Assembly (NCBI GenBank): GCA_024408435.1
Contig: JAKSVA010000001.1
Location: forward strand, 1 to 56,798
Length of the DNA stretch: 56,798 nucleotides
Origin: Bacilli bacterium
GTDB lineage: Bacteria > Bacillota_I > Bacilli_A > RFN20 > CAG-826
Direction of reading: 5' to 3'
Shown: positions 19,632-31,822 of the stretch, in pieces
Layout of the letters: each line of letters opens with the position of its first letter
Numbering within the stretch: position 1 is the first letter of the stretch
Made by a program: the position numbers and the translations under genes
The notes under the pieces: model-generated
Databases searched by the model: none
What the model saw: the letters and a program-made list of their open reading frames with translations, nothing else
What the model was told of the DNA's origin: nothing

Positions 19632-19729
19632 AAATGTTGGAAAAATGCAAAAAACATATGTTAAAAATCTTGGAAAAGTGCAAAAAATTACAAAATAAAT
19701 CTTGGAAAAATGCAAAAACGGTATATAAT
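19632..19729 (+). repeat. Three tandem 32-33-bp units (AAAT[G/C]TTGGAAAA[A/G]TGCAAAAA...) upstream of the COG1373-type ATPase gene
   Basis: The units start at 19632, 19665 and 19697. The last unit provides TTGGAA (19702..19707), a 16-nt spacer and TATAAT (19724..19729), followed by GGAG and the ATG at 19753. Confidence 0.7.
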
Positions 19730-19752
19730 AACAATTACTATCGGAGATAACT

Positions 19753-21048
19753 ATGCTATTTAGAAAAGTTACTAATAATATCGATGAGTGGTATAAAGGC
19801 AAGAAAACTGCTTTATTAATTGATGGCGCTCGACAAGTCGGCAAAACGACCATTATTGAAGAATACCTTAATAAAAACAAGATCGATTATGTTGAATTTA
19901 ACTTAATTGAGAATCAAATAGCGCGTGATGCATTTAATACTTCTATTGATGCAAACGATTTATTACTTAAATTATCCGCTATTTCTAAAAAACCTCTCAA
20001 AAAAGGAAAAACTGTAATATTTATTGATGAGGCCCAAGAACCAAATGATGCCATTACACCGATTAAATTTTTAGTTAAAGAAGGGAGTTATCGTTTTATC
20101 TTTTCTGGTTCGCTATTGGGAGTAAAGATGAAAGATATTCAATCTGCGCCAATTGGATCTATGACAGTAATTAATATGTATCCAATGGATTTTGAAGAAT
20201 TTTTAATTGCTAATTCAACCAATAAAGACACAATAGATTATTTAAAAGAATGTTTTTATAAATTAAAACCAGTCGACAATGATATCCATAGGCAAATAAT
20301 GAATATATTCAATAAATATTTAGTCGTAGGTGGTTTGCCAAAAGCAGTAAGAGAATATGTTGAAACCAACAATATGAGTAAAGTTAGAGACGCTCAGTAT
20401 GATGTTGATAAAGGCTATTTAATGGATGTTGCAAAATATAAAAAGGAAGAGAAATTATTAATTGATGATATATATGAATTAATACCAAGCGAACTAAATG
20501 CCAAAAACAAACGATTCATTATTAAATCACTGGATAAAAAAGCACGATATTATAATTACGAATCAAGCCTTGTTTGGTTTAAAAACAGTGCAATTGGTCT
20601 ATTCACTTACACGGTAGACGAACCAGTATATCCTCTTAGAGCAAGCGTTAAAAGACAATTATTTAAGTTATTTTTGTGTGATACAGGATTACTAGTACAT
20701 AAATTAGCTAAGGATACTGCTGCAAAAATTCTAACCAATCATTTAAATATAAATTATGGAGCTATTTATGAATCGGTTGTTGCCCAAGAATTAACCGCCC
20801 ATGAGATTCCACTATATTATTACAATAATAAAAAACAAGGTGAAGTCGATTTTTTAATTGAAGACGGAGACCAAATCATACCAATAGAAGTAAAAAGTGG
20901 AAAAGATTATGATCGCCATGTAGCGTTAGATAAACTATTAGAAACTAAAAACTATTCTATAGATAGGGCCTACGTATTATGTAACGAAAACATTAAAATT
21001 AAAGAAAAAAAGATATACCTACCGATTTATTTTGTGATGTTTATATGA
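19753..21048 (+). CDS. AAA+ ATPase of the COG1373 type (AAA_14 N-terminal domain, DUF4143-like C-terminal domain)
   Basis: 431 aa. It has Walker A DGARQVGKTT, Walker B VIFIDEAQ, and a C-terminal GEVDFLIEDGDQIIPIEVKSGKDY (a D...E.K nuclease-fold-like motif typical of this family). Confidence 0.8.
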   Translation: MLFRKVTNNIDEWYKGKKTALLIDGARQVGKTTIIEEYLNKNKIDYVEFNLIENQIARDAFNTSIDANDLLLKLSAISKKPLKKGKTVIFIDEAQEPNDAITPIKFLVKEGSYRFIFSGSLLGVKMKDIQSAPIGSMTVINMYPMDFEEFLIANSTNKDTIDYLKECFYKLKPVDNDIHRQIMNIFNKYLVVGGLPKAVREYVETNNMSKVRDAQYDVDKGYLMDVAKYKKEEKLLIDDIYELIPSELNAKNKRFIIKSLDKKARYYNYESSLVWFKNSAIGLFTYTVDEPVYPLRASVKRQLFKLFLCDTGLLVHKLAKDTAAKILTNHLNINYGAIYESVVAQELTAHEIPLYYYNNKKQGEVDFLIEDGDQIIPIEVKSGKDYDRHVALDKLLETKNYSIDRAYVLCNENIKIKEKKIYLPIYFVMFI

Positions 21049-22544
21049 TGAAAATTAATATTGATGAATTTATTAAGAGTGTTGATAATAACATTAAAAA
21101 TTATGCTATAGATTACGAAAAAATCGGTGTTGACTTTAAAATTGCTACTCAAAATCAAATTAATATTCTTTATGAGCGAACGCTTTCCTCAATAACTAAT
21201 TATTTTATTTACTCTGAGTTCCAAAACTTAAAAGCTGATGTAGGATTAGGAGTAAACGAGATAAAAATATTTTTTGAAAATGGAATTAATGCTTTTGATT
21301 TTTCCACTCTCAAAAAAGAAGTAGGATTAAAACCTAAAAGTAAATCAGATAGAGAAATGTGGGAAAACTACTGTGTCCCAGATGGCTTTTTTGTTGTTAA
21401 CAACGTTTTAAACGAACCGCTTTATCTATTTGTCGAGTATAAGCTGAATCAAGATTTAGTTTATATTGATTTAGCATTAGATTACCTAAAATATAAGGCG
21501 TATACATATAAAAGCCATTTAAAATCTGTTTTTGCGTTTGTCATATTTGATAAAAAAGAAAAGTACCCAACAATTATTAATTCAGGCCCCTCTTATTTTC
21601 AAATACTTGACAAAGCGATTTTACCAACTATGGATATGGAAAAAAGAGTGTATATATATAAAAATCTAGAAATTAAAGATAAAGATGATGATAGCGATTT
21701 TAGTTTTAATGAGTTAAGTGACTCAATACAACAGTTTGTCGAATTGTCTAATTTATCATCTGATATTCTATGTCATGAAGACAAAATTGGATTAATTGAA
21801 GATAATAACATTTTCATAAACTCTATGGAAAAATTTAACAAACGTGTTATTAATGCTCAGATTATTAGAGACAATTATAACTATATAGTAGATATATGGA
21901 ACGCTTGCAAAAAGAAAAATATATTTGATGGTATTTATGAAGACTTCAATTTACACTCCAAAGAAGAATTAACAAATGAAATAATAATAGATGAAGGCTC
22001 ACATTACTCAGCGTGTTTTGATGAAAGCATTAATTTAAAAGCGAGACTTCGAGCGATGGAAGATGGCATTAGAGGTTCTTCTTACGCATCTTTAAACGTA
22101 ATAGTTCTTATTGATTACTTCAACGATTATTTCGGTATTGATAAAACCATTATGCCTATGTATGGTAAAACAAAAATCGGAAAGAACATTAAAGAAAAAG
22201 AGGAGGTAGATTTCAATAAAACCGCTATTAGACAAAAAAGAAAAATAGATGAACATTATGGATCCGATTCACAAAAAAGCAAGAAAATTAAAAAATTAAC
22301 ATATGCATTGATGTATTATATAAAAAATTTATACGAAGCTATCTATGATATAGGAGAAGACAATACAATTGGTGAATATAACGAAGCCTATGAAACTTAT
22401 ATTCTCACAAACCAGTTTAATGAAAGGGTTGAAAAAATCAGTCGACGTTTCAAATACACAAAACCAATAAGATTAAATATTGATTTAAAAAATACTAGAG
22501 CCAAACTATTAAACCTAGTTGAACATATTATTACGCAAATATAG
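21045..22544 (+). CDS. Hypothetical protein with a candidate PD-(D/E)xK nuclease core, translationally coupled to the upstream ATPase
   Basis: 499 aa. The ATGA start/stop overlaps the ATPase gene. The motif VPDGFFVVNNVLNEPLYLFVEYKLNQD fits hPD-x(n)-ExK. The remainder is a long helical, Lys/Glu/Asp/Asn-rich region with no motif I recognise. Confidence 0.6.
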   Translation: MMKINIDEFIKSVDNNIKNYAIDYEKIGVDFKIATQNQINILYERTLSSITNYFIYSEFQNLKADVGLGVNEIKIFFENGINAFDFSTLKKEVGLKPKSKSDREMWENYCVPDGFFVVNNVLNEPLYLFVEYKLNQDLVYIDLALDYLKYKAYTYKSHLKSVFAFVIFDKKEKYPTIINSGPSYFQILDKAILPTMDMEKRVYIYKNLEIKDKDDDSDFSFNELSDSIQQFVELSNLSSDILCHEDKIGLIEDNNIFINSMEKFNKRVINAQIIRDNYNYIVDIWNACKKKNIFDGIYEDFNLHSKEELTNEIIIDEGSHYSACFDESINLKARLRAMEDGIRGSSYASLNVIVLIDYFNDYFGIDKTIMPMYGKTKIGKNIKEKEEVDFNKTAIRQKRKIDEHYGSDSQKSKKIKKLTYALMYYIKNLYEAIYDIGEDNTIGEYNEAYETYILTNQFNERVEKISRRFKYTKPIRLNIDLKNTRAKLLNLVEHIITQI

Positions 22545-22547
22545 CAA

Positions 22548-23273
22548 TTACAAAATTATCCTAATTTTGCGCGGCAATGACCAAAAAACTTGATATTTGT
22601 AATTGTTTTTGTGCTTCAAAAAAGCATCGCTTATTTCTTTTTTTGCTTCCTTTCTAAACTCAAGTGGCAAATGAATAATTAAATTATTGATACTGCTACT
22701 TAAATCTTTTTTGGCCTCGCTCCCTGGTGTGACATTATATAAATATTTGTGGTCAAGAATAAATTTATTATGCCCAATTTTATTTCTAAGTGACACTAAG
22801 GCTTTTTTATTTGCCTTTGTTTTAACATTTGGAAAAAGCATAGCGAAATCATTATTTGGCAAATGATATGCTACATCAACTAAATTACTAAAAAGATCAT
22901 ATGATAATAAATCAAAAGTTTCGTTGCTGTTTTTAGCTAAGTCTCTAGCATCTTTACCTATAAATTTACTGCATCCATTAGGTAAATCTTTCTCCAGAGG
23001 ATATTTGTTAGAAATATATGCGCGTATATTTTCTTCTAAATAGCCTAAAAATTTATATAGTATTCTTCTAATGCGTTTATCATACCTCATTGTTGATGCT
23101 ACTTCGCAATAGGTAGGAGTTCTCCCTAACTTCTTACTAAGATAATTAGCAACATTAATATGCTCTTGAATTCCACGTCTATTTAAATATACTTTCGCAG
23201 ATTCTATCTCTTCTGGCTTAATTTTAACTAACTTAAAGAAACTATCGTAATCCATATCTTTGTTCCAATTCAT
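22548..23273 (-). CDS. Abi_2 (AbiD/AbiF-like) family protein, HEPN-type with an Rx4H motif
   Basis: 241 aa. SLRNKIGHNKFIL contains the R-x4-H motif. The overall layout resembles Abi_2 abortive-infection proteins. It overlaps the upstream gene by 32 nt. Confidence 0.65.
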   Translation of the reverse strand: MNWNKDMDYDSFFKLVKIKPEEIESAKVYLNRRGIQEHINVANYLSKKLGRTPTYCEVASTMRYDKRIRRILYKFLGYLEENIRAYISNKYPLEKDLPNGCSKFIGKDARDLAKNSNETFDLLSYDLFSNLVDVAYHLPNNDFAMLFPNVKTKANKKALVSLRNKIGHNKFILDHKYLYNVTPGSEAKKDLSSSINNLIIHLPLEFRKEAKKEISDAFLKHKNNYKYQVFWSLPRKIRIIL

Positions 23274-23856
23274 TAACCGTTTCTAATAATAAAGAAAAAG
23301 AGCTTTCGTCTAAAAATTTATTCTTTTTAAGCAAATAGATTTCTTTTAATTCATCAAGATGTCTCTTTCTTATTCTTCTAAACCTTCTTTGAAAATCTTG
23401 CGATTTTCTAATTTTGCACCATGAATATGAATTAGCGCCGTTTCTAACTAATTTCTGTAGCCCATCCTCAAACTCCACCATAACAGCACAATCAAAAGAA
23501 AAGCGATATCCTAATAAATTTCCAATATAACTTGTGACAACTGAAGTAGAATTATGCACTCTAACATTATCAAACTTACTTAAAGCATCATTAAAAGCAT
23601 TAACAAACAACGTTTTTAATTTAGCGGGATGTCTAATTAAATCTTCATCGCAAGATTGAATAACTAAATTGTAATCTAGATCAACACGCTTACTATTTCC
23701 GTTGGCCATCAAAAGCTTAGTATATCCGCTTCCTATAAGAAAAAATTGAAATGTTAAATATTCATTTAACAATTTTTGAACTTCATTAATTCTTTTAACA
23801 CAAAAATCATTTAATGCGGTTCTAGTTTTTTTATTAGAAAAGTAAATATAAGACAT
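23242..23856 (-). CDS. Minimal Pol-beta-fold nucleotidyltransferase (MNT/SMODS-like)
   Basis: 204 aa. FLIGSGYTKLLMANGNSKRVDLDYNLV carries the GS...DxD signature, and a third acidic residue sits in the strand FSFDCAVMV. There is a basic C-terminal helical region. The start is 2 nt after the ATPase stop. Confidence 0.55.
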   Translation of the reverse strand: MSYIYFSNKKTRTALNDFCVKRINEVQKLLNEYLTFQFFLIGSGYTKLLMANGNSKRVDLDYNLVIQSCDEDLIRHPAKLKTLFVNAFNDALSKFDNVRVHNSTSVVTSYIGNLLGYRFSFDCAVMVEFEDGLQKLVRNGANSYSWCKIRKSQDFQRRFRRIRKRHLDELKEIYLLKKNKFLDESSFSLLLETVNELEQRYGLR

Positions 23857-23858
23857 AA

Positions 23859-25418
23859 TTAGTTGTTTTCAACTTTTGACCAAATTTTACCAAACAACGA
23901 TTGCGCCCCATCACCTAATTTAATAACTTTTTTATTATCCAAAATATTTCGAACGTTTTCGGAATAAGAATTTTGCTTATCAAAAGCAATAAAAATTTGC
24001 TTATCAAAATTAGAATAGCAAGCTAAAATACGCTCGATCACATCGTCTTCGATTTGTTTAAACAAAGGAGTGTCGTGAATAAAAAACGGCAATTTTGTTA
24101 AGCCTAAGATAGAAATGTCGAATACAATAATTCCTTTGAAACTTACACCTGTCCCCGTATCATTCTTGGTGGAAAAAGTATAAGAGGATTTATCAAACAA
24201 TAATTTAGGATGTGAATAATTATTACCATATATAGAAGCATCTATGTTCTCGATTTTTGAATTAATTTGGCTAGAAAGTCTAGATAATAGAGCGGACTTA
24301 ATTTCTTTTAGATCTTCGTGCATTTTATCATTATCGTCTTTTAAATTATGGTATATTTCATAAACCTTATTTTCAGAACTAATCGATTCAATTGAGTTAG
24401 AAAGTCGTAAATATTCATTTACAGCACCGGTTATAGGTGAAGAAAAATTTGTTAAATCATTAAATTTAGTTAAATAATCAGATAAAAGACTTTCATATTC
24501 ATTAATTTCCTTATTAGTCTCTTCTAATTGAAGCTTCATTTCTTGCTTAAAAATGCGCGAAATTAAAAAATGAAAATTTTCCACTTCTTCCAAACGCTTT
24601 ACGTTTGTATTAGGGAAATATTTCAACAATTGCTCAAAATCTTTTTCACTTTTCGAAAATTTGTTAGAAAGATTACTTTCGATTTTTCGTAATTTAATTT
24701 TTGATTTAGCCTTTAATCTTTTAGTGTACACAATTTTATCTTTTAAAGAAAGTGCTTCGTCTGAAAGAATTGAATCTAAGGAGCAATTACTTCCCTCGAT
24801 TTCTTTTCTTACTTCAGTAATTTTTTTCTTTAATTCAGATATTTTGGTTTTATTTTTTTCATATTCAGTTTTAATGATTAGGGAACTGTTTAGAAGACCA
24901 AATTTATTTGCATTCTTAAATGTAACAAACTTTTTTTGAGATTCATTTGCTTTTTGTTCATATTCCTTTATTTGCGGATACAACCCAAACAACCTTAATA
25001 AAGAATTTATAGCATTGGAAAATTTGTCTTCCTGAACAACGTGAAGCGGTTTTACAGGATTTAAATTGTCCTTTCCATATATTCTACTATATAGGCCAAC
25101 TGCATCACGAAAAGTGGTGCCTAATTCATTTAAATTATAAAAATTATTTAGCATATTTTTATAATCTTCTAGCGTGATAGTTTTGATTTTATTTTTGCTA
25201 GAATCGCACTCCCAAACAATATTTTTAGCATTGTTTGAACGGCAAAAATAGAATCTCTTTTCCTCAAAAAGAAAAGTAAAAAATATCTCACATTCACCTA
25301 CATTTAATCGTATATCGTCGCTCAACGCAAAATCTTCGCCACCAAAAGCAAAATCTATGACAAGTAGTAAAGTTGACTTGCCAATAGAATTCTTTCCATC
25401 TTCTTTACCTAACACCAC
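23859..25418 (-). CDS. ABC-3C-type ABC ATPase (DUF2326-like); the N-terminal ~22 codons lie in another frame behind an A6 tract
   Basis: It has Walker A GKNSIGKSTLL, a long coiled-coil insert, and a C-terminal FFIHDTPLFKQIEDDV block typical of DUF2326. The track start is a GTG. The RBS-preceded ATG at 25483 is out of frame (see findings). Confidence 0.75.
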   Translation of the reverse strand: MVLGKEDGKNSIGKSTLLLVIDFAFGGEDFALSDDIRLNVGECEIFFTFLFEEKRFYFCRSNNAKNIVWECDSSKNKIKTITLEDYKNMLNNFYNLNELGTTFRDAVGLYSRIYGKDNLNPVKPLHVVQEDKFSNAINSLLRLFGLYPQIKEYEQKANESQKKFVTFKNANKFGLLNSSLIIKTEYEKNKTKISELKKKITEVRKEIEGSNCSLDSILSDEALSLKDKIVYTKRLKAKSKIKLRKIESNLSNKFSKSEKDFEQLLKYFPNTNVKRLEEVENFHFLISRIFKQEMKLQLEETNKEINEYESLLSDYLTKFNDLTNFSSPITGAVNEYLRLSNSIESISSENKVYEIYHNLKDDNDKMHEDLKEIKSALLSRLSSQINSKIENIDASIYGNNYSHPKLLFDKSSYTFSTKNDTGTGVSFKGIIVFDISILGLTKLPFFIHDTPLFKQIEDDVIERILACYSNFDKQIFIAFDKQNSYSENVRNILDNKKVIKLGDGAQSLFGKIWSKVENN

Positions 25419-25473
25419 GTTTAACCCTTTATGAAAAGTGATACTAGGTGTGCTAAATTTTTTACAAAAATTT

Positions 25474-25701
25474 CTAAGAGCATAAATACACCTCCGATGT
25501 TTCTTGATTAAGATTTATTTTCCCGAGATAGAATAAACAGTCAAGAACTTCAACAAAATCATTAAAATCCGAAAAATTTCGTTTTACAGACTCATATAGA
25601 TTTGTCAAAGGCAAAGGATTCGATGATAAAAATCCTAAAACAATATTAAACTTACTTATTAAGCTTTCCCTATAAGTAACAACTTTATTTGGTAATTTCA
25701 T
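25474..25701 (-). CDS. ABC-3C middle component (small helical protein)
   Basis: A 75-83-aa ORF lies between the HNH effector and the ATPase. The ATG at 25701 is preceded by AGG and overlaps the HNH gene by 17 nt. Its stop overlaps the ATPase ATG. The assignment rests on size and position. Confidence 0.55.
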   Translation of the reverse strand: MKLPNKVVTYRESLISKFNIVLGFLSSNPLPLTNLYESVKRNFSDFNDFVEVLDCLFYLGKINLNQETSEVYLCS

Positions 25702-26503
25702 TAAAAACCTCGCAATTTTGAACAAAATACGAAACTACTGCTTCGCATGCAGATTTTGAAGAGGATATAACACTAATTTTATTCATTAACCAATTAACCA
25801 TTTCGTTAAAAATCCATTCTAAATCCACCGTCTTTTTTGAGAGGCCTATAAAACAAGATTTAAATTGTGAAGCAATTAAATCAAAATTAACGCCTTTATT
25901 TTCCTCTTCAGAAAAAATATTTTTAATGTAGTAATAATAATTTCTAACATTATCAATAATTTTTTGTTTTAATAGATGGCACGAATCAGGTATTTTATTA
26001 TTTATAGAAATTGGCTTTAATTTCAATTCCTCCAATTGACTACAGTCAATAGTCGAAAGAGCTTTTATAATTTTTTCGATGTCATCTTCCAAATTCATTG
26101 AATTAGATATTTGTTGCAATGTAGCACGCTCAATATATTTTTCCTTTAAACTTACCATCTCCATATATTCTTCTGCGGTTGTTGCTGAATCGTAAGCCGC
26201 ATGGCAATCAAAGCATAAAATTATTAAATTATCCAAAGATTCACTATTGTCGCCTAATCTTTTTAATTTATAAATTCTGCTATAAAAATCAACAGAAGGG
26301 TTGCATGGAAAGATATGCGCAATTTCATACAATTTTACACTTTTAGTTTTTTTCTTTAACGGAACGAGAAGTTTACCACATTTAGGGCAATAAAAATGTA
26401 CTTCATTTAGTAGAATCTTTTCTTCATTGCCTGCTTTATCTTTTCTACCTACTAAATATTTATCGCTTTCTATCAATTTTTTAATTTCTGATGAATCCAT
26501 CAT
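25685..26503 (-). CDS. HNH endonuclease fused to an ABC-3C effector C-terminal domain
   Basis: 272 aa. CPKCGKLL...YEIAHIFP...LDNLIILCFDCHAAYD gives CxxC, H, N and CxxCH of the beta-beta-alpha-metal HNH finger. The C-terminal ~150 aa is helical and ends with ACEAVVSYFVQNCEVF. Confidence 0.75.
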   Translation of the reverse strand: MMDSSEIKKLIESDKYLVGRKDKAGNEEKILLNEVHFYCPKCGKLLVPLKKKTKSVKLYEIAHIFPCNPSVDFYSRIYKLKRLGDNSESLDNLIILCFDCHAAYDSATTAEEYMEMVSLKEKYIERATLQQISNSMNLEDDIEKIIKALSTIDCSQLEELKLKPISINNKIPDSCHLLKQKIIDNVRNYYYYIKNIFSEEENKGVNFDLIASQFKSCFIGLSKKTVDLEWIFNEMVNWLMNKISVISSSKSACEAVVSYFVQNCEVFNEITK

Positions 26504-26626
26504 TTTTATTTTATAATAAAAAATATTATTTGTTAAAAAACGTCATTATTATATATGATAACAATTATTACTAAATAAAAAAGTTCATCACATCGCTTTA
26601 TTATGAACTTATATCGCAAGATGGAA

Positions 26627-26936
26627 TCTTCTCCCATGATGACAAAGTCATGATAGGTTACATAACTATCTATTAATACACTTATTAACTAAATAATAAT
26701 TATCATTAAATGAATCGATTTACCACTAACCCCCACGTTGTCATAGACAAGGTGGGTACTCTTCTCCCATGATAACGAAGTTAGGATGAGTTAACTAATA
26801 TTATTAATAATGTCTATTAACTAAGAAATATATTATTCCCACTAACTAAAGTTATTTATTACTAACAAACATCTTGTTGTGGCAACAAGAGGATGGACAA
26901 TTCACTCCACGATGTCAAAGACAGGGTGGACCCGGT
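26627..26936 (+). repeat. Two tandem units (133 and ~177 bp) of an imperfect-hairpin repeat family, junction copy 1
   Basis: Both units begin TCTTCTCCCATGAT (26627 and 26760). Hairpins are CCCATGATGAC-AAA-GTCATGATAGG (26633..26657), CCCACGTTGTC-ATA-GACAAGGTGGG (26732..26756), TCTTGTTG-TGGC-CAACAAGA (26872..26891) and CCACGATGTC-AAA-GACAGGGTGG (26907..26929). Confidence 0.8.
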
Positions 26937-27141
26937 TTTTATACTAACTTATCTTTTCAAATTTCTATTCTATTGCAAAATAGTTTCGGAGATTTTTACT
27001 CCATTTTACACGGTTCATTATCATATTTACTTGCATTTTAATGATCACCTACTCAAACTTATTTTGATTAATCTAAATGTAAATGATAGTATCACCAAAA
27101 TAGTTTAAAAAAGAGTAATAAAATATGCTAATATATTAAGT

Positions 27142-28950
27142 ATGAAATTTGTTCTTCAACACGTTGTTTTTCCTTCTATAAAAAATATTGGTAACATAAG
27201 CGATTTATATTTTAAAAGCAATAGGAAAGTTATTTTTGATTACACAAAAAATGAACCAATACGTATGTCAAAACAACAAGAGTTAGAGTTTGCTACATAC
27301 TTTAATTGCTTTTCACAACAAAAATGGATTTTATATACTGATATTGGAAATATCAATCTATCCATTGAATTAAAAGGACAATTTTCTATTTCTTTATTAC
27401 ATCTATATAAAAATGGCCTCAACAAGAGTTGTTGTGAAATTTTATCAACAAAAAAAATAGTTTCTGACACTAGAAAAATTTTTGATTTGAATTTTTCATC
27501 TTTTGACTCGACTGGAATTCTTGCATTTAAAATCACATCGCTAGTAGACGGATCGTTATATTATGATTCATATTTCTACACTAATATCGATGAGCAAAAA
27601 ATTAAAAACATTAATTTAGGTATAGGAATATGCACATACAAAAGAGAAAAATATGTAACACAAAATATATCTTCATTGACTAATGCAATAAAACTAAATA
27701 ATTGTTTTTCTAATTTACAAATATTTATTGCGGATAATGGAAATACATTGCAATCGTTTAATAACGACCATATCCATTTATTTAAAAACAGAAATACTGG
27801 TGGATCAGGCGGTTTTACACGCTGCATGATAGAAGCCATAAATTATAATAAAAAAAACAATCACCCAATTACTCATCTTATTCTCATGGATGATGACATC
27901 ATTTTTGATTGCGAATCCATTTTTAGAACTCATGCAATGTTGTCCATACTTAAAGATGATTACAAAAAAGAGTTTGTTGGTGGCGCAATGTTTTTCTTTG
28001 ATAAGCCATACATTCAGCACGCATCTGGCGAATTTTGGGTCGGTGATAGATGCGAAAGTTTTATTGATACATACAATAGAAACCTTGACATGAGAAAAAT
28101 TTCGTGTGTTCTTGATAGTGAAAAACCACTTTATTCCAATTATCAAGCTTGGTGGTACTGTGCTATTCCTATGTCCATTGTCTCTTACAAAAATTTGCCA
28201 ATGCCTTTTTTCGTAAAAAGCGATGATATTGAATATAGTATAAGAAACAAAAATCACACTATATTACTTAATGGAATTTGTGTGTGGCATGAATCGTTTG
28301 AATCAAAATATTCCCCAAAAAATGAATATTATACAGTAAGAAATTATCTAATAACCGCAAGTGCTCATAAAATAAAATTGGATAAAAGAAGGATTAAGTC
28401 TTTTTTTCTAAGGTATGTAAAACACTACATATGCAATTATAAATATTTAGAAATTAAATATTTTTGTTATGCGCTAAATGATTTTTTACGTGGAGTTGAT
28501 TACGTTAAATCAATAAATATTGAGCAATGCCACAAAGTAAAATTAAATAAAGGTTATAAAATAATGCATGTCAACGATTTACCTTTTCATTTTTCAAAAG
28601 CAGAATACTGGAAAACAATAAAAGAGGATGAGAAACATAAAGTTCCATTCTTATTCGCGAAATACACTATCAACGGATTACTAATCCCATCCCATAAGTA
28701 TGCAGTCTTAGGTGTATGGGGTGGCTCATATTATCAAACTTATAGAAAAAAATTTTTAATTAGATATGATCCCCATACTAACACCGCCTTTATATTACGC
28801 AGAAAACCTTTATTAAGTTTCAAATCATTATTGTTAGCATATAGAACTGTGAGAAAAATAAACAAATATTTTGATTATGCTTATAAGGATTTTTCTAAAA
28901 ATTGGAGGAAATTAATTTCTTACGATAATTGGAAAAAACATTTAAGTTAA
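27142..28950 (+). CDS. Family 2 glycosyltransferase, GlfT2-like architecture
   Basis: 602 aa. It has NRNTGGSGGFTRCM, LILMDDDIIFD (DxD) and QAWWYCAIPMS...FVKSDDIEYSIR. It is a paralogue of 33540..34592. Confidence 0.75.
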   Translation: MKFVLQHVVFPSIKNIGNISDLYFKSNRKVIFDYTKNEPIRMSKQQELEFATYFNCFSQQKWILYTDIGNINLSIELKGQFSISLLHLYKNGLNKSCCEILSTKKIVSDTRKIFDLNFSSFDSTGILAFKITSLVDGSLYYDSYFYTNIDEQKIKNINLGIGICTYKREKYVTQNISSLTNAIKLNNCFSNLQIFIADNGNTLQSFNNDHIHLFKNRNTGGSGGFTRCMIEAINYNKKNNHPITHLILMDDDIIFDCESIFRTHAMLSILKDDYKKEFVGGAMFFFDKPYIQHASGEFWVGDRCESFIDTYNRNLDMRKISCVLDSEKPLYSNYQAWWYCAIPMSIVSYKNLPMPFFVKSDDIEYSIRNKNHTILLNGICVWHESFESKYSPKNEYYTVRNYLITASAHKIKLDKRRIKSFFLRYVKHYICNYKYLEIKYFCYALNDFLRGVDYVKSINIEQCHKVKLNKGYKIMHVNDLPFHFSKAEYWKTIKEDEKHKVPFLFAKYTINGLLIPSHKYAVLGVWGGSYYQTYRKKFLIRYDPHTNTAFILRRKPLLSFKSLLLAYRTVRKINKYFDYAYKDFSKNWRKLISYDNWKKHLS

Positions 28951-29044
28951 AAAGTTTATTTTTTTAGTTTTATATCAAAAACTTTATTACTTAATGTAGA
29001 AAAATTAACAAGTACATAATATAATAATTATGGAGTTTTATTTT

Positions 29045-31822
29045 ATGAATAAAATAATGGACAATCTTGAAGAAAGATGCACTGGGTGCTCCGCTTGTAT
29101 GAATGCATGCCCTACAAATGCAATAGAAATGAAGGAAAATTTAGAAGGATTTTTGTTTCCTTCAATCGATGATAACAAATGTATTAATTGCAAAAAATGT
29201 TCTTCAATATGCCCGGCGAACAATTTAGTGAAAGACAATTGTTTAAGTGAAAAAATGTATGCAGTGGAAGCCGATGATGAAACTCGTGTGATAAGTTCTT
29301 CTGGAGGGGTTTTTAGCGTAGTTGCGAAATATTTTTTGCAAAATGATGGATATGTTTGTGGCGCGGCGTTTGATAAAAAATTGCAGCTAAGACATGTAAT
29401 AATTAATAAACTTGAGGATTTACCTCAACTATGTAAATCAAAATATTTGCAAAGTAGTATAGGTTATATATTTTCTGATATTAAACAACTTTTGGATAAA
29501 GGAAAAAACGTATTATTTGTTGGAACACCTTGTCAAGTAGCAGGGTTAAATAATTACTTAATAAAAAAATACGATAACTTGTTAACAATGGATTTAATGT
29601 GTCATGGAGTTCCTTCACAAAAATCATTCAACAAATATTTAGAAGAAATTGAAACTTGCAAAGGCGTGTCTGCTGTTGATTGCACATTTCGTTTGAAGCA
29701 TAATGGCTGGTTGGGTTCTGCAGAAAGGATAATGATAAAATTCAAAGATGACAGCACATATTCTAAAACAAGGTCTGCTGGAGACCCTTATGTAAAAGCT
29801 TTTTTAGAAAATATCGACTTAAGAAAAAGCTGTGAAGATTGTCCTTTTTCAGAATTACCAAGGCATGGAGATTTATCAATAGGGGACTTTTGGGGAATTG
29901 AAAAGTATAAAAAGGAGCCTATAGATAATAAAGGGACATCAATAGTACTAATAAACAACAAAAAAGGAGAAATGTTTTTTAATAAATGCATCAAACTTAA
30001 TACAAAAAATGAAGAATACAATTTCAGCGATAACATGCCTAATAGAGTACATAGAATTTTTAAACATTCACGTTTTAGAAAGCAATTCTTCCTAGAATTA
30101 GAAAATAAAAGTTTTTCCAACGCTTTAAATCAAAGTATCACTCTATCAGATGATAAAAATACATTTTTTGCGGGCAAAAGATATGATGTAGGATTAGTAT
30201 GCAATTATTCCGCACTAAATTTTGGTGGGAGTCTAACACAATATGCCTTGTTTAATGTCTTAAAAGATTTAGGGAAGTCTGTCTTACTAATTGAAAGGCC
30301 AAAAAATGCACCAGAAGCTATTTACCCAAATATTTATCATCAAATGTACAATAAGTGGCCATATTTAAAACAAGACACTTCACCACAATTTAATGATAAA
30401 AATGAAATGAAACTACTTAATCAATATTGTGATAGATTTATCGTAGGATCTGATGTTTTGTTTAGAGCTTCTCTTTATAAAAAAATGGGCAAAATTTCGT
30501 CTCTAAGTTGGGTTAATAATGATAAACCAAAAATAGCCTACGCTGCTTCTTATGGTTTTGACTTCATGGAAGGTAGTTATGACGATAATGCTGAATTGTC
30601 TTATTTTCTCAAAAAATTTGATGCATTTTCTTGCCGAGAAAAAAGTGGCATAAAACTATTCAAAAACTTTTTTGGCATAGATTCTACTTTTGTTTTAGAT
30701 CCCGTTTTTTTGTGTGATAAAAAACATTATGAAAATTTAATAAATAAAAGCAATAAACAAATAAAAAGTGGATCTATTTGTTGCTATATACTTGACCCAA
30801 ATGACTATAAAAGAAATGTTATCCTACAAGTTAGCAAAACATTAAACAACAACCCTATAATTTTTTCTGAATTCCTTTCAGAAAAAGCGAACTCATTATT
30901 AAAAAAGCATTTTTTTGATTTTAATTGCGTTAATTACACAATTGAAGATAGATTAAAATGTTTTAAAGAAAGCAGCTTTGTCATCACTGATTCTTTTCAT
31001 GGAACATGTTTAGCTATCATTTATAACAAACCATTTATATGCATGCCGAACGCAGAGCGCGGATTAACTCGTTTTGATTCTCTTCTTAATTTTTTCAGAT
31101 TAAATAATAGAGCTATAATCTCAAAAAACGTAATTTCTCCTGAAATTGTTTTAAAATCTATAAATTATAAATCGGTTAACAAAAAAATTAAAAAAACTGT
31201 AGCGAAAAACAAAAAATGGTTGCTGCATGCATTAGCAATAAAACCACATATTGGTTATTCGCAATACGACATTTTAAGTAGAAAATTAACTGAATATCAA
31301 AATAATGAGATAGCAACAATTAAAAAACAAATAAAATTTTTATATTCTAAAATTAATTGTCTTCCACTGATAAATGATATTAAACAATACTTTACAAAAT
31401 TATCAGAATTAAGTGAGCATTTGACAATAATTATTTCTGTAAAAGACACACCTGGAATAGAGTTATCAAAACCATTTGCAGAATTTATAAAAAATAATGT
31501 AAAATCCAATTGTAATTTAGCAAATAATCACCAAAACAGTTATATTTTGATTAATAGTTTTGGCAAAAATATTTTTGAAATGTTAAGTGCAGAAAAAATC
31601 ACTAAGGTGGTAAAATGCGATAATTTTGAAATTAATGTTACAAGTGCAAATTTAAAAGTTGGTAATGAGTCTAGCATATTGATAAATGGCAAAGAATATT
31701 CTATAAATCAGCGCGGTTTAAACATCGTAATAATTGATCATTTTTGTAATGTCGTTATTGATTCAATTAACATCGACACGCATCTAATTCCGTATAAATT
31801 TAATCATTTACCTGTTATATAA
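29045..31822 (+). CDS. Fusion protein: 2x[4Fe-4S] ferredoxin / F420H2-dehydrogenase beta-like domain + polysaccharide pyruvyl transferase domain + extra C-terminal domain
   Basis: It has CTGCSACMNACP and CINCKKCSSICP clusters, an FrhB/FdhB-like region (GTPCQVAGL), then a pyruvyl transferase-like region (VITDSFHGTCLAIIYNKPFI). The ATG at 29045 has GGAG 9 nt upstream. The track start is 29030. Confidence 0.7.
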   Translation: MNKIMDNLEERCTGCSACMNACPTNAIEMKENLEGFLFPSIDDNKCINCKKCSSICPANNLVKDNCLSEKMYAVEADDETRVISSSGGVFSVVAKYFLQNDGYVCGAAFDKKLQLRHVIINKLEDLPQLCKSKYLQSSIGYIFSDIKQLLDKGKNVLFVGTPCQVAGLNNYLIKKYDNLLTMDLMCHGVPSQKSFNKYLEEIETCKGVSAVDCTFRLKHNGWLGSAERIMIKFKDDSTYSKTRSAGDPYVKAFLENIDLRKSCEDCPFSELPRHGDLSIGDFWGIEKYKKEPIDNKGTSIVLINNKKGEMFFNKCIKLNTKNEEYNFSDNMPNRVHRIFKHSRFRKQFFLELENKSFSNALNQSITLSDDKNTFFAGKRYDVGLVCNYSALNFGGSLTQYALFNVLKDLGKSVLLIERPKNAPEAIYPNIYHQMYNKWPYLKQDTSPQFNDKNEMKLLNQYCDRFIVGSDVLFRASLYKKMGKISSLSWVNNDKPKIAYAASYGFDFMEGSYDDNAELSYFLKKFDAFSCREKSGIKLFKNFFGIDSTFVLDPVFLCDKKHYENLINKSNKQIKSGSICCYILDPNDYKRNVILQVSKTLNNNPIIFSEFLSEKANSLLKKHFFDFNCVNYTIEDRLKCFKESSFVITDSFHGTCLAIIYNKPFICMPNAERGLTRFDSLLNFFRLNNRAIISKNVISPEIVLKSINYKSVNKKIKKTVAKNKKWLLHALAIKPHIGYSQYDILSRKLTEYQNNEIATIKKQIKFLYSKINCLPLINDIKQYFTKLSELSEHLTIIISVKDTPGIELSKPFAEFIKNNVKSNCNLANNHQNSYILINSFGKNIFEMLSAEKITKVVKCDNFEINVTSANLKVGNESSILINGKEYSINQRGLNIVIIDHFCNVVIDSINIDTHLIPYKFNHLPVI

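Follow-up and report, generated by a model that had tools for sequence, protein, structure and literature searches.

A frameshifted ABC-3C trio and a conserved nucleotidyltransferase-Abi_2 pair placed head to tail in a Bacilli genome

The stretch of DNA analysed here, called the window below, comprises 56,798 nucleotides (nt) of contig JAKSVA010000001.1 from a Bacilli bacterium (assembly GCA_024408435.1). Between positions 22548 and 26503 it carries five co-directional open reading frames (ORFs) on the minus strand, which encode an HNH protein, a small middle component (MC), an ATPase, a nucleotidyltransferase (NTase; the protein of the window is named NT) and an Abi protein. The reading proposed here, with a probability of roughly 0.6, is that this cluster consists of two defence modules joined head to tail, each of them self-contained, an ABC-3C trio followed by an NT-Abi pair, and that in the second of these the NTase controls a HEPN RNase, more likely by inhibition. 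The NT-Abi_2 half is the interesting part of the locus, a conserved module that joins an unnamed family of CD-NTase-like nucleotidyltransferases to a predicted HEPN RNase of the AbiD/F type. The elements of the cluster are the following.

25685-26503, minus strand: HNH, 272 residues, ABC-3C effector component with an N-terminal HNH nuclease domain and a C-terminal CTD11 domain
25474-25701, minus strand: MC, 75 residues, ABC-3C middle component MC7
23859-25483, minus strand: the whole ATPase gene, an ABC-3C ABC ATPase of the DUF2326 type, interrupted by a frameshift (body 23859-25418, 519 codons)
25458-25463, minus strand: A6 homopolymer (T6 on the plus strand), where one extra A restores the ATPase frame
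23242-23856, minus strand: NT, a 204-residue nucleotidyltransferase of an unnamed family, with catalytic residues G42-S43, D59, D61 and D122
22548-23255, minus strand: Abi, 235 residues from the ATG at 23255 (the longest ORF, from 23273, has 241 residues)

A preliminary description of this locus, made from the sequence alone, had recognised the five co-directional minus-strand ORFs, and their coordinates agree with it. The junctions that it listed hold for HNH/MC (a 17-nt overlap) and for ATPase/NT (a 2-nt gap). Its 32-nt overlap between NT and Abi applies to the longest Abi ORF only and shrinks to 14 nt from M7 (ATG 23255), which is the start in most homologues and in the NCBI gene call of 235 residues and which gives the same 14-nt overlap in two of the loci compared, L001 and L004. 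At the ATG of the ATPase (25483-25481) the overlap with the MC stop amounts to 10 nt. All the motifs noted in the HNH, ATPase, NT and Abi proteins are present. These ORFs are not due to chance: significant family matches exist for four of them, and NT, the remaining one, has 280 relatives at E <= 0.001.

The five-gene region has a G+C content of about 28%. It is flanked on one side by a ribosomal-protein operon (L3, L4, L2; 15.8-18.5 kb, about 40% G+C) and on the other by polysaccharide-synthesis genes from 27142, the locus tags of the NCBI annotation in the window running from MJ208_00170 to MJ208_00200. Co-transcription of the five genes in this genome is plausible. A scan for promoter and terminator consensus sequences returned 26 promoter-like sites for 29 expected from shuffled sequences; with no enrichment, it is uninformative on co-transcription. 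The search of the whole window against Rfam at the gathering threshold gave no match. With the limit relaxed to E <= 1 over 22300-27200, a single chance match to a snoRNA was returned and no AbiF-like non-coding RNA (ncRNA) was identified. The window contains no tRNA genes.

The linkage between NT and Abi was surveyed from the Abi side, through six loci obtained by exact look-ups and 29 metagenome loci (about 35 together), which come from gut and rumen Firmicutes-like organisms. A gene of the NT family abuts the Abi gene in every surveyed locus in which the flank is present, the two genes overlapping by up to 44 nt or lying up to 15 nt apart and their order being reversed once (L099). Moreover, 32 of the 33 paired NTs fall in one clade, apart from the stand-alone NTs of conjugative elements. 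Because NT abuts Abi wherever the flank is present and because nearly all the paired NTs constitute one clade, NT and Abi are an obligate two-gene unit, and the link between the two genes suspected in the preliminary description is confirmed by this neighbourhood survey. The scan of a genome collection from the NT side gave 80 loci, none of them with an Abi-family neighbour; its peptide pattern was biased to the main clade of the family, and it says nothing against pairing in the NT clade of the window, which was reached from the Abi side.

NT has no match in Pfam (E <= 0.1), NCBIfam, PADLOC (2.0) or PHROGs. A word-indexed search found four close relatives, and an exhaustive HMMER search found 280 cluster representatives at the threshold given above, nearly all of them 200-235 residues long and sharing the motif G-S-G...D-[LF]-D-Y-N-L. 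In NT itself this motif is spaced as G42-S43-x15-D59-L-D61, with a third Asp at D122, and the residues G42, S43, D59, D61, K81, D122, W146 and K178 are invariant or nearly invariant. Pfam searches with 90 relatives (E <= 0.01) gave nothing recurrent, and no PF01909, SMODS (PF18144) or Mab-21 domain; the NT profile compared with the PDB sequences gave chance matches only.

A confident AlphaFold2 model of NT, built from an alignment of 94 sequences (pLDDT 87.8, pTM 0.84), ends in two C-terminal helices, and its best 50 listed Foldseek matches in the PDB are all CD-NTases, cGAS or MiD51, with no antitoxin of the minimal-nucleotidyltransferase (MNT) kind among them. The top match is CdnB (7ljo, 4e-6), and others are DwCdnB, DncV, CdnC and CdnE. 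The template-modelling scores against CD-NTases are about 0.5-0.56 when normalised to NT, and the C-terminal lobe is reduced. A comparison of the model with BFVD returned one uncharacterised giant-virus protein and is uninformative. The identification of the 204-residue protein as an NTase thus stands. On the evidence of this model, NT is a miniature cGAS/CD-NTase-like enzyme rather than one of the minimal NTases typified by MntA.

The main clade of the NT family (L005-L084; for example L042, L044, L046, L053, L064, L078 and L079) is of another sort. Its members stand alone in conjugation modules carried by mobile elements of Firmicutes, next to genes for PrgI, a TraG/VirB4-like ATPase, a type IV secretion system pilin, a sortase, a serine recombinase or DUF6075, and have no HEPN partner. 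This stand-alone clade could represent an anti-defence 'orphan' NTase.

The partner of NT is recognised by the Abi_2 model of Pfam below the threshold (E 0.0064, 17.2 bits for a cut-off of 25.6) and over residues 55-96 only. Nine of nine members of its family nevertheless match Abi_2 at 0.1 or better, the best at 1.7e-8, and the protein matches phrog_2158, 'abortive infection resistance protein', at 7e-5. Its profile gives in addition a weak match to the 'Abi family protein' of PDB entry 8vz6, at the R-[YF]-D-K motif. The stretch RYDKRIRR (63-70) and the residues R163, N164, H168 and N169 are kept in at least 95% of 26 paired homologues. The HEPN motif reads L-R163-NKIG-H168, within RNKIGHNKF; the tyrosine of the RX4HXY motif of HepT is absent, and that position is K, R or I in the family alignment. 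The AlphaFold model of Abi is all-helical and confident (pLDDT 89). Foldseek found nothing below E = 2 for it in the PDB, and Cas13 chains, AbiF being the proposed ancestor of Cas13, appeared at insignificant scores only. No relatives of Abi were found in the viral contigs of IMG/VR. The family matches and the conservation of the motifs uphold the earlier assignment of the 241-residue ORF to the Abi_2-type HEPN proteins; as predicted from its sequence, Abi is a short and divergent member of this AbiD/F type.

Three known systems can be compared with this pair. In the HepT/MntA modules (type VII toxin-antitoxin systems), as here, the NTase gene lies immediately upstream of the gene for an Rx4H HEPN RNase and overlaps it, and the NTase has a GS...DxD motif. 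MntA has fewer than 150 residues, a PF01909 domain and the spacing GSX10DXD; it neutralises HepT by oligoAMPylation, and the RX4HXY motif of HepT contains the acceptor tyrosine (PMC7641770). NT differs from MntA by its 204 residues, by the lack of a match to PF01909 or to any other Pfam family, by the spacing GS-x15-DxD and by its CD-NTase-like fold, and its HEPN partner is of the Abi_2 type, without the tyrosine. The idea of the preliminary description that NT is a minimal NTase acting as an MNT antitoxin is therefore not supported; NT as a strict MNT antitoxin was rejected on motifs, size and fold.

The AbiD, AbiD1 and AbiF proteins (Pfam Abi_2; 'Abi2' in DefenseFinder) share with Abi the motifs R-[YF]-D-K-x-[IL]-R and R-N-x3-H, the family matches to Abi_2 and the presence of a controlling element upstream. 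Indeed, AbiD/F proteins are HEPN toxins checked by an element encoded immediately upstream, and the antitoxin of the AbiF type is an ncRNA, which makes the system a type III toxin-antitoxin (PMC13064643). Abi is shorter, with 235 residues compared with 300 for 8vz6 and 345 for a lactococcal AbiD-like protein, and the upstream element is here an NTase coding gene that overlaps the start of Abi, not an ncRNA.

The third comparison is with cGAS, OAS and the CD-NTases (CdnB, DncV, CdnC, CdnE) of the antiphage signalling systems based on cyclic oligonucleotides (CBASS), which give the best superposition, the same arrangement of GS, DxD and D, and a two-gene operon with a predicted toxic effector. 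NT is about 100-180 residues shorter than these enzymes, most of the C-terminal lobe is missing, and neither SMODS nor Mab-21 is matched. The putative effector Abi has no recognisable cyclic-nucleotide sensor domain such as SAVED or STING, and the sister clade of NT stands alone in conjugative elements. No description of an NT-Abi_2 pairing was found in the literature. In summary, the pairing of an NTase with a HEPN protein is a known theme. The libraries searched contain neither this NT family with its CD-NTase-like fold nor its obligate association with an Abi_2-type HEPN protein.

The other half of the cluster is readily classified. The HNH protein, named HNH endonuclease by NCBI, matches Pfam CTD11 (2.2e-28, residues 130-267, 100 bits for a cut-off of 27.7), Pfam HNH_2 (1.3e-5, residues 57-107) and PADLOC PDC-M68A (6.8e-15), and its HNH motif consists of C39xxC42, A62-H63, N92 and C97xxC100-H101. 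The MC protein matches Pfam MC7 over its full length (5.8e-21, 74.8 bits for a cut-off of 27), and a GAGG precedes its ATG. The MC7 gene has seemingly been left uncalled by NCBI: the protein is in the collection from the Logan source only, with no NCBI name or accession, and between the tags of NT (00185) and of the glycosyltransferase (00200) only two locus tags are free. The ATPase, once its frame is repaired to 541 residues, matches Pfam DUF2326 (6.3e-13, residues 418-532) and AAA_23 (2.2e-8, residues 8-230). It has the Walker A motif GKNSIGKST (G30-KNSI-GKS), the block FFIHDTPLF and a long insert between the two halves of the head. Its best PADLOC model is PDC-M68B (3.1e-12), aligned from residue 1. 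These matches to CTD11, MC7 and DUF2326 bear out the ABC-3C trio proposed earlier.

The statement that ABC-3C systems are known essentially from computation looks outdated. Lamassu (LmuABC/DdmABC), on which experimental and structural work exists, is now treated in papers as being of the ABC-3C type. The trio resembles it by its CTD-bearing effector, its small middle component and its ABC/SMC-like ATPase, all encoded in one tight operon. It differs in that the ATPase is of the DUF2326 type, the PADLOC candidate PDC-M68, in that the LmuB models cover no more than the N-terminal 120 residues or so (residues 3-119, 7.8e-7), and in that the gene is frameshifted. No experimental study of the DUF2326 subtype of ABC-3C was found in the literature, the mentions of DUF2326 being unrelated. 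The same type of trio (HNH, a 74-residue protein, DUF2326 ATPase) exists alone on a Shewanella plasmid, where the junctions also overlap, where neither NT nor Abi accompanies it and where it is followed by a divergent regulator gene. The ABC-3C half of the cluster is an ordinary member of a catalogued class, frameshifted in this particular genome.

This frameshift contradicts the earlier view of an intact ATPase starting at the ATG that overlaps the MC stop: start and body lie in different frames. The ATG at 25483 is preceded, 7 nt upstream, by the Shine-Dalgarno sequence GGAGGT, yet the frame it opens differs from that of the body. From this ATG the frame reads MLLEIFVKNLAHLVSLFIKG, that is 20 codons, and ends at a stop at 25423-25421. 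In the body frame the first possible start is the GTG at 25418, before which no ATG, GTG or TTG is available; its Shine-Dalgarno-like sequence is weaker. The change of A6 to A7 at 25458-25463 fuses both frames into the 541-residue protein, which begins MLLEIFVKKFSTPSITFHKGLNVVLGKEDGKNSIGKST. Residue 1 of this repaired protein aligns with position 1 of PDC-M68B, and the DUF2326 proteins encoded on plasmids of Shewanella, Xanthomonas and Halomonas also align from residue 1 and cover residues 1-537 of the ATPase; because of these alignments the repaired N-terminus looks native. Run SRR17543908, as assembled in Logan (L003), shows an identical A6. An artefact confined to the assembly of the metagenome-assembled genome (MAG) was rejected because L003 has A6 too, both assemblies possibly sharing the same reads. 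As sequenced, the gene is inactivated, or depends on -1 slippage or on variation of the tract length, and the ABC-3C module is probably inactive or, at best, expressed at a low level through slippage.

The frameshift might also be a regulatory device, either phase variation between A6 and A7 or programmed -1 slippage on A-AAA-AAT, which would keep a toxic ABC-3C system low or switchable. The shift occurs within a homopolymer 21 nt after a strong Shine-Dalgarno-ATG pair, a -1 slip yields exactly the repaired protein, the second assembly has the same tract, and the remaining frame of 519 codons is open despite the 28% G+C of the DNA. This explanation is nevertheless improbable, given that A6 is short for efficient slippage, that no stimulatory structure was found, no search aimed at one having been made, that the second assembly may derive from the same reads as the first and that distant homologues have a plain, uninterrupted gene.

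The genes found upstream of the NT-Abi pair vary among the loci surveyed and include the following.

L004 (sister MAG): Dcm methylase, 11-nt overlap
L102 group: BrxL, DUF7862-7864 and cysteine desulfurase, the latter with an 8-nt overlap
L094: AAA-ATPase_like/PDDEXK_9, 14-nt overlap
L098 and L110: HsdR
L105: ResIII helicase
L097: Fic
L111: three GT2 glycosyltransferases, 2-nt gap
L107: phosphopantetheinyl transferase
L101: TIR, divergent
L089: ASCH and AAA_13
L090: DUF932
L086: HATPase_c_3, divergent

The pair is also found without the trio in L001, where NT is 82% identical to that of the window and a divergent P4_cII-like gene lies upstream, in L085 as well as L086, and in the 29 metagenome loci. 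Several of the upstream junctions (from a 14-nt overlap to a 2-nt gap) are as tight as that of the window, and since they tie the pair to unrelated genes, the 2-nt gap between the ATPase and NT is no evidence of functional coupling. An ABC-3C trio precedes the pair in two of about 18 distinct contexts, the window and L087. The trio of L087 (1752-6705) is of a different subtype, made of a CTD7 effector (400 residues), an MC3 protein (161 residues) and an LmuB_C ATPase (637 residues), and ends 25 nt upstream of the pair.

Some of these loci deserve a brief mention for their surroundings. In L087 the trio and the pair adjoin a serine recombinase, followed by a 1029-residue protein, a 301-residue protein and a PIN-domain protein. 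In L111 (4370-9758) the pair lies inside a polysaccharide-synthesis operon, with an FkbM methyltransferase downstream after a 9-nt gap. In L085 (6739-7971) a 410-residue protein with DUF8425 and HNH domains is encoded 15 nt downstream of the pair, within an island containing AbiH, AbiEii and AAA_13 genes, and the pair adjoins a gene of the FrhB/pyruvyl-transferase type, as at 29030-31822 in the window.

The DNA of the locus is itself a mosaic. The sister MAG (L004) is about 80% identical to the window over 19702-23352, a segment that begins inside NT and includes Abi and the convergent genes for a 499-residue protein and an AAA_14/DUF4143 ATPase; upstream of 23352 its NT core is another one, of about 40% identity, and the Dcm gene is present. 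L001 and L002 are about 80% identical to the window over 23002-23858, from the start codon of NT as far as codon 90 or so of Abi, beyond which they diverge. Homology to L001 and L002 begins at the start of NT and homology to L004 begins inside NT, so that the junction between trio and pair is a recombination boundary. The segments that travel together are NT with the first 90 or so codons of Abi (L001, L002), or the last 37 or so codons of NT with the whole of Abi (L004). These breakpoints perhaps point to an interface formed by the C-terminal helix of NT and the N-terminal domain of Abi; alternatively, they may reflect recombination at conserved stretches, the motif SF..h.E.VN being conserved family-wide. 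Over 26 complete pairs, the identities of NT and of Abi are only moderately correlated, with a Spearman coefficient of 0.59, and the extremes are 82% for NT with 42% for Abi and 40% for NT with 81% for Abi.

The two-module reading rests on these observations taken together: the trio alone on the Shewanella plasmid, the pair without the trio, the variety of the upstream genes and the recombination boundary. Of the two possibilities left side by side in the preliminary description, a composite system or two stacked modules, the second is favoured, and an obligate five-gene system is not supported, given the small share of contexts with ABC-3C genes. In the first module (25483-26503 with 23859-25483), the invader's DNA would be sensed by the SMC-like ATPase, which would release the HNH nuclease by way of the middle component, as the analogy with Lamassu-type ABC-3C systems suggests. 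In the second (22548-23856), Abi would be the toxic effector, a HEPN protein that cleaves RNA and aborts the infection, and NT would control it by nucleotidyl transfer. More likely than not, NT would inhibit the RNase, either by nucleotidylylating Abi or through synthesis of an oligonucleotide filling the HEPN site, and infection would relieve this inhibition. The overlap of the 3' end of NT with the Abi gene suggests translational coupling. The inhibitory direction is favoured because the place of the ncRNA antitoxin of AbiF is taken by the NT gene, because the NTase comes first and its gene overlaps that of the HEPN protein, because of the precedent of the HEPN/MNT modules, because the C-terminal lobe of the CD-NTases is reduced in NT and because the stand-alone relatives could be orphan antitoxins.

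Several observations weigh against this interpretation. The tyrosine modified by MntA in RX4HXY is absent from Abi, which tells against the inhibitory model in particular. The fold of NT is nearer to the CD-NTases that make signals than to the MNT antitoxins. The shuffling of NT and Abi between close relatives argues against a tight one-to-one co-evolution of the two proteins. The HEPN assignment of Abi rests on sequence motifs and weak profile matches, because no significant structural match was obtained in the PDB. Finally, L087 is a second, independent association of a trio with the pair, and two contexts in about 18 may be more than chance would give and might reflect a functional cooperation. 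A serious rival takes its strength from two of these points, the fold match and the partner shuffling. In this alternative NT-Abi would be an activating module, a minimal CBASS-like or OAS/RNase L-like device in which NT senses infection and an (oligo)nucleotide signal switches on the HEPN RNase. The best 50 listed PDB matches of NT point to such enzymes, its catalytic triad is invariant, and the exchange of partners fits a communication by a generic small molecule. HEPN RNases activated by oligoadenylates are known, namely RNase L and Csm6/Csx1. An activating role is nonetheless only a tentative possibility, since NT has only 204 residues, with two C-terminal helices instead of a full helical lobe and no SMODS or Mab-21 match, since no CARF, SAVED or other sensor domain is recognisable in Abi, since the main NT clade stands alone in conjugative elements with no effector nearby, and since the characterised AbiD/F relatives are constitutively toxic and depend on their antitoxin.

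The five genes could also form one composite system, in which NT-Abi would serve as an accessory, or as a second effector arm, placed under the ABC-3C ATPase and middle component and co-transcribed with them from a promoter upstream of HNH. The co-directional genes with their close junctions (overlaps of 17, 10 and 14 nt, and the 2-nt gap) lend themselves to this proposal. The region shared with L001 and L002 stops at the start of NT, so that the pairs have no promoter in common, and in L087 the pair follows, after 25 nt, an ABC-3C trio of another subtype. Against it, ABC-3C genes are missing from about 16 other contexts of the pair, a trio of this type exists alone on a plasmid, the chromosomal site taken up by the trio is occupied by Dcm in the sister MAG, equally tight junctions tie the pair to unrelated genes, and NT and Abi are intact next to a frameshifted ATPase. 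A single five-gene system is therefore very unlikely, and a looser cooperation between ABC-3C and NT-Abi, kept alive by L087, has a low probability. The two-module reading is retained. A bolder form of the hypothesis, which appears rather doubtful, is that the pair represents an AbiF-like branch in which the ncRNA antitoxin was replaced by a mini cGAS/OAS-like NTase, making an untemplated (oligo)nucleotide ligand that gates the HEPN RNase; the stand-alone NTase clade would then be an 'orphan antitoxin' disarming such RNases in recipient cells. Models for this gating exist in both directions, inhibitory as in Hailong and Panoptes or activating as in the OAS/RNase L pair.

The cluster is bordered by two other features of interest, which are outside the five genes.

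19753-22544, plus strand: convergent genes for a 431-residue AAA_14/DUF4143 ATPase and a 499-residue protein, with a 4-nt overlap
26627-26665 and 26760-26798, plus strand: two copies of a direct repeat of about 39 nt

The AAA_14/DUF4143 ATPase matches the PADLOC candidate PDC-S01 (3e-172) and the 499-residue protein has no family match. Both genes are at the same place in the sister MAG L004, and they may constitute a further two-gene defence candidate. The direct repeat, TCTTCTCCCATGATRAC..., is present in two copies 133 nt apart in the intergenic region of about 640 nt (26504-27141) between HNH and the divergent glycosyltransferase. Pieces of it, 80-93% similar, are found in the intergenic DNA of L085 (1951-2057) and L086 (1-56). 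The region has no Rfam match and folds no better than shuffled sequences, except on the plus strand at 26730-26860 (z = -2.7). This could be either an intergenic repeat of dispersed type or a small RNA belonging to the lineage.

Two lessons can be drawn from this locus. Tight operon-like junctions in defence islands are no proof of functional unity. As regards the NT-Abi_2 module, an AbiF branch in which an NTase stands in the place of the antitoxin, with its two small genes, clear catalytic mutants and toxicity as a read-out, would allow a simple test of the way in which HEPN toxins are gated.

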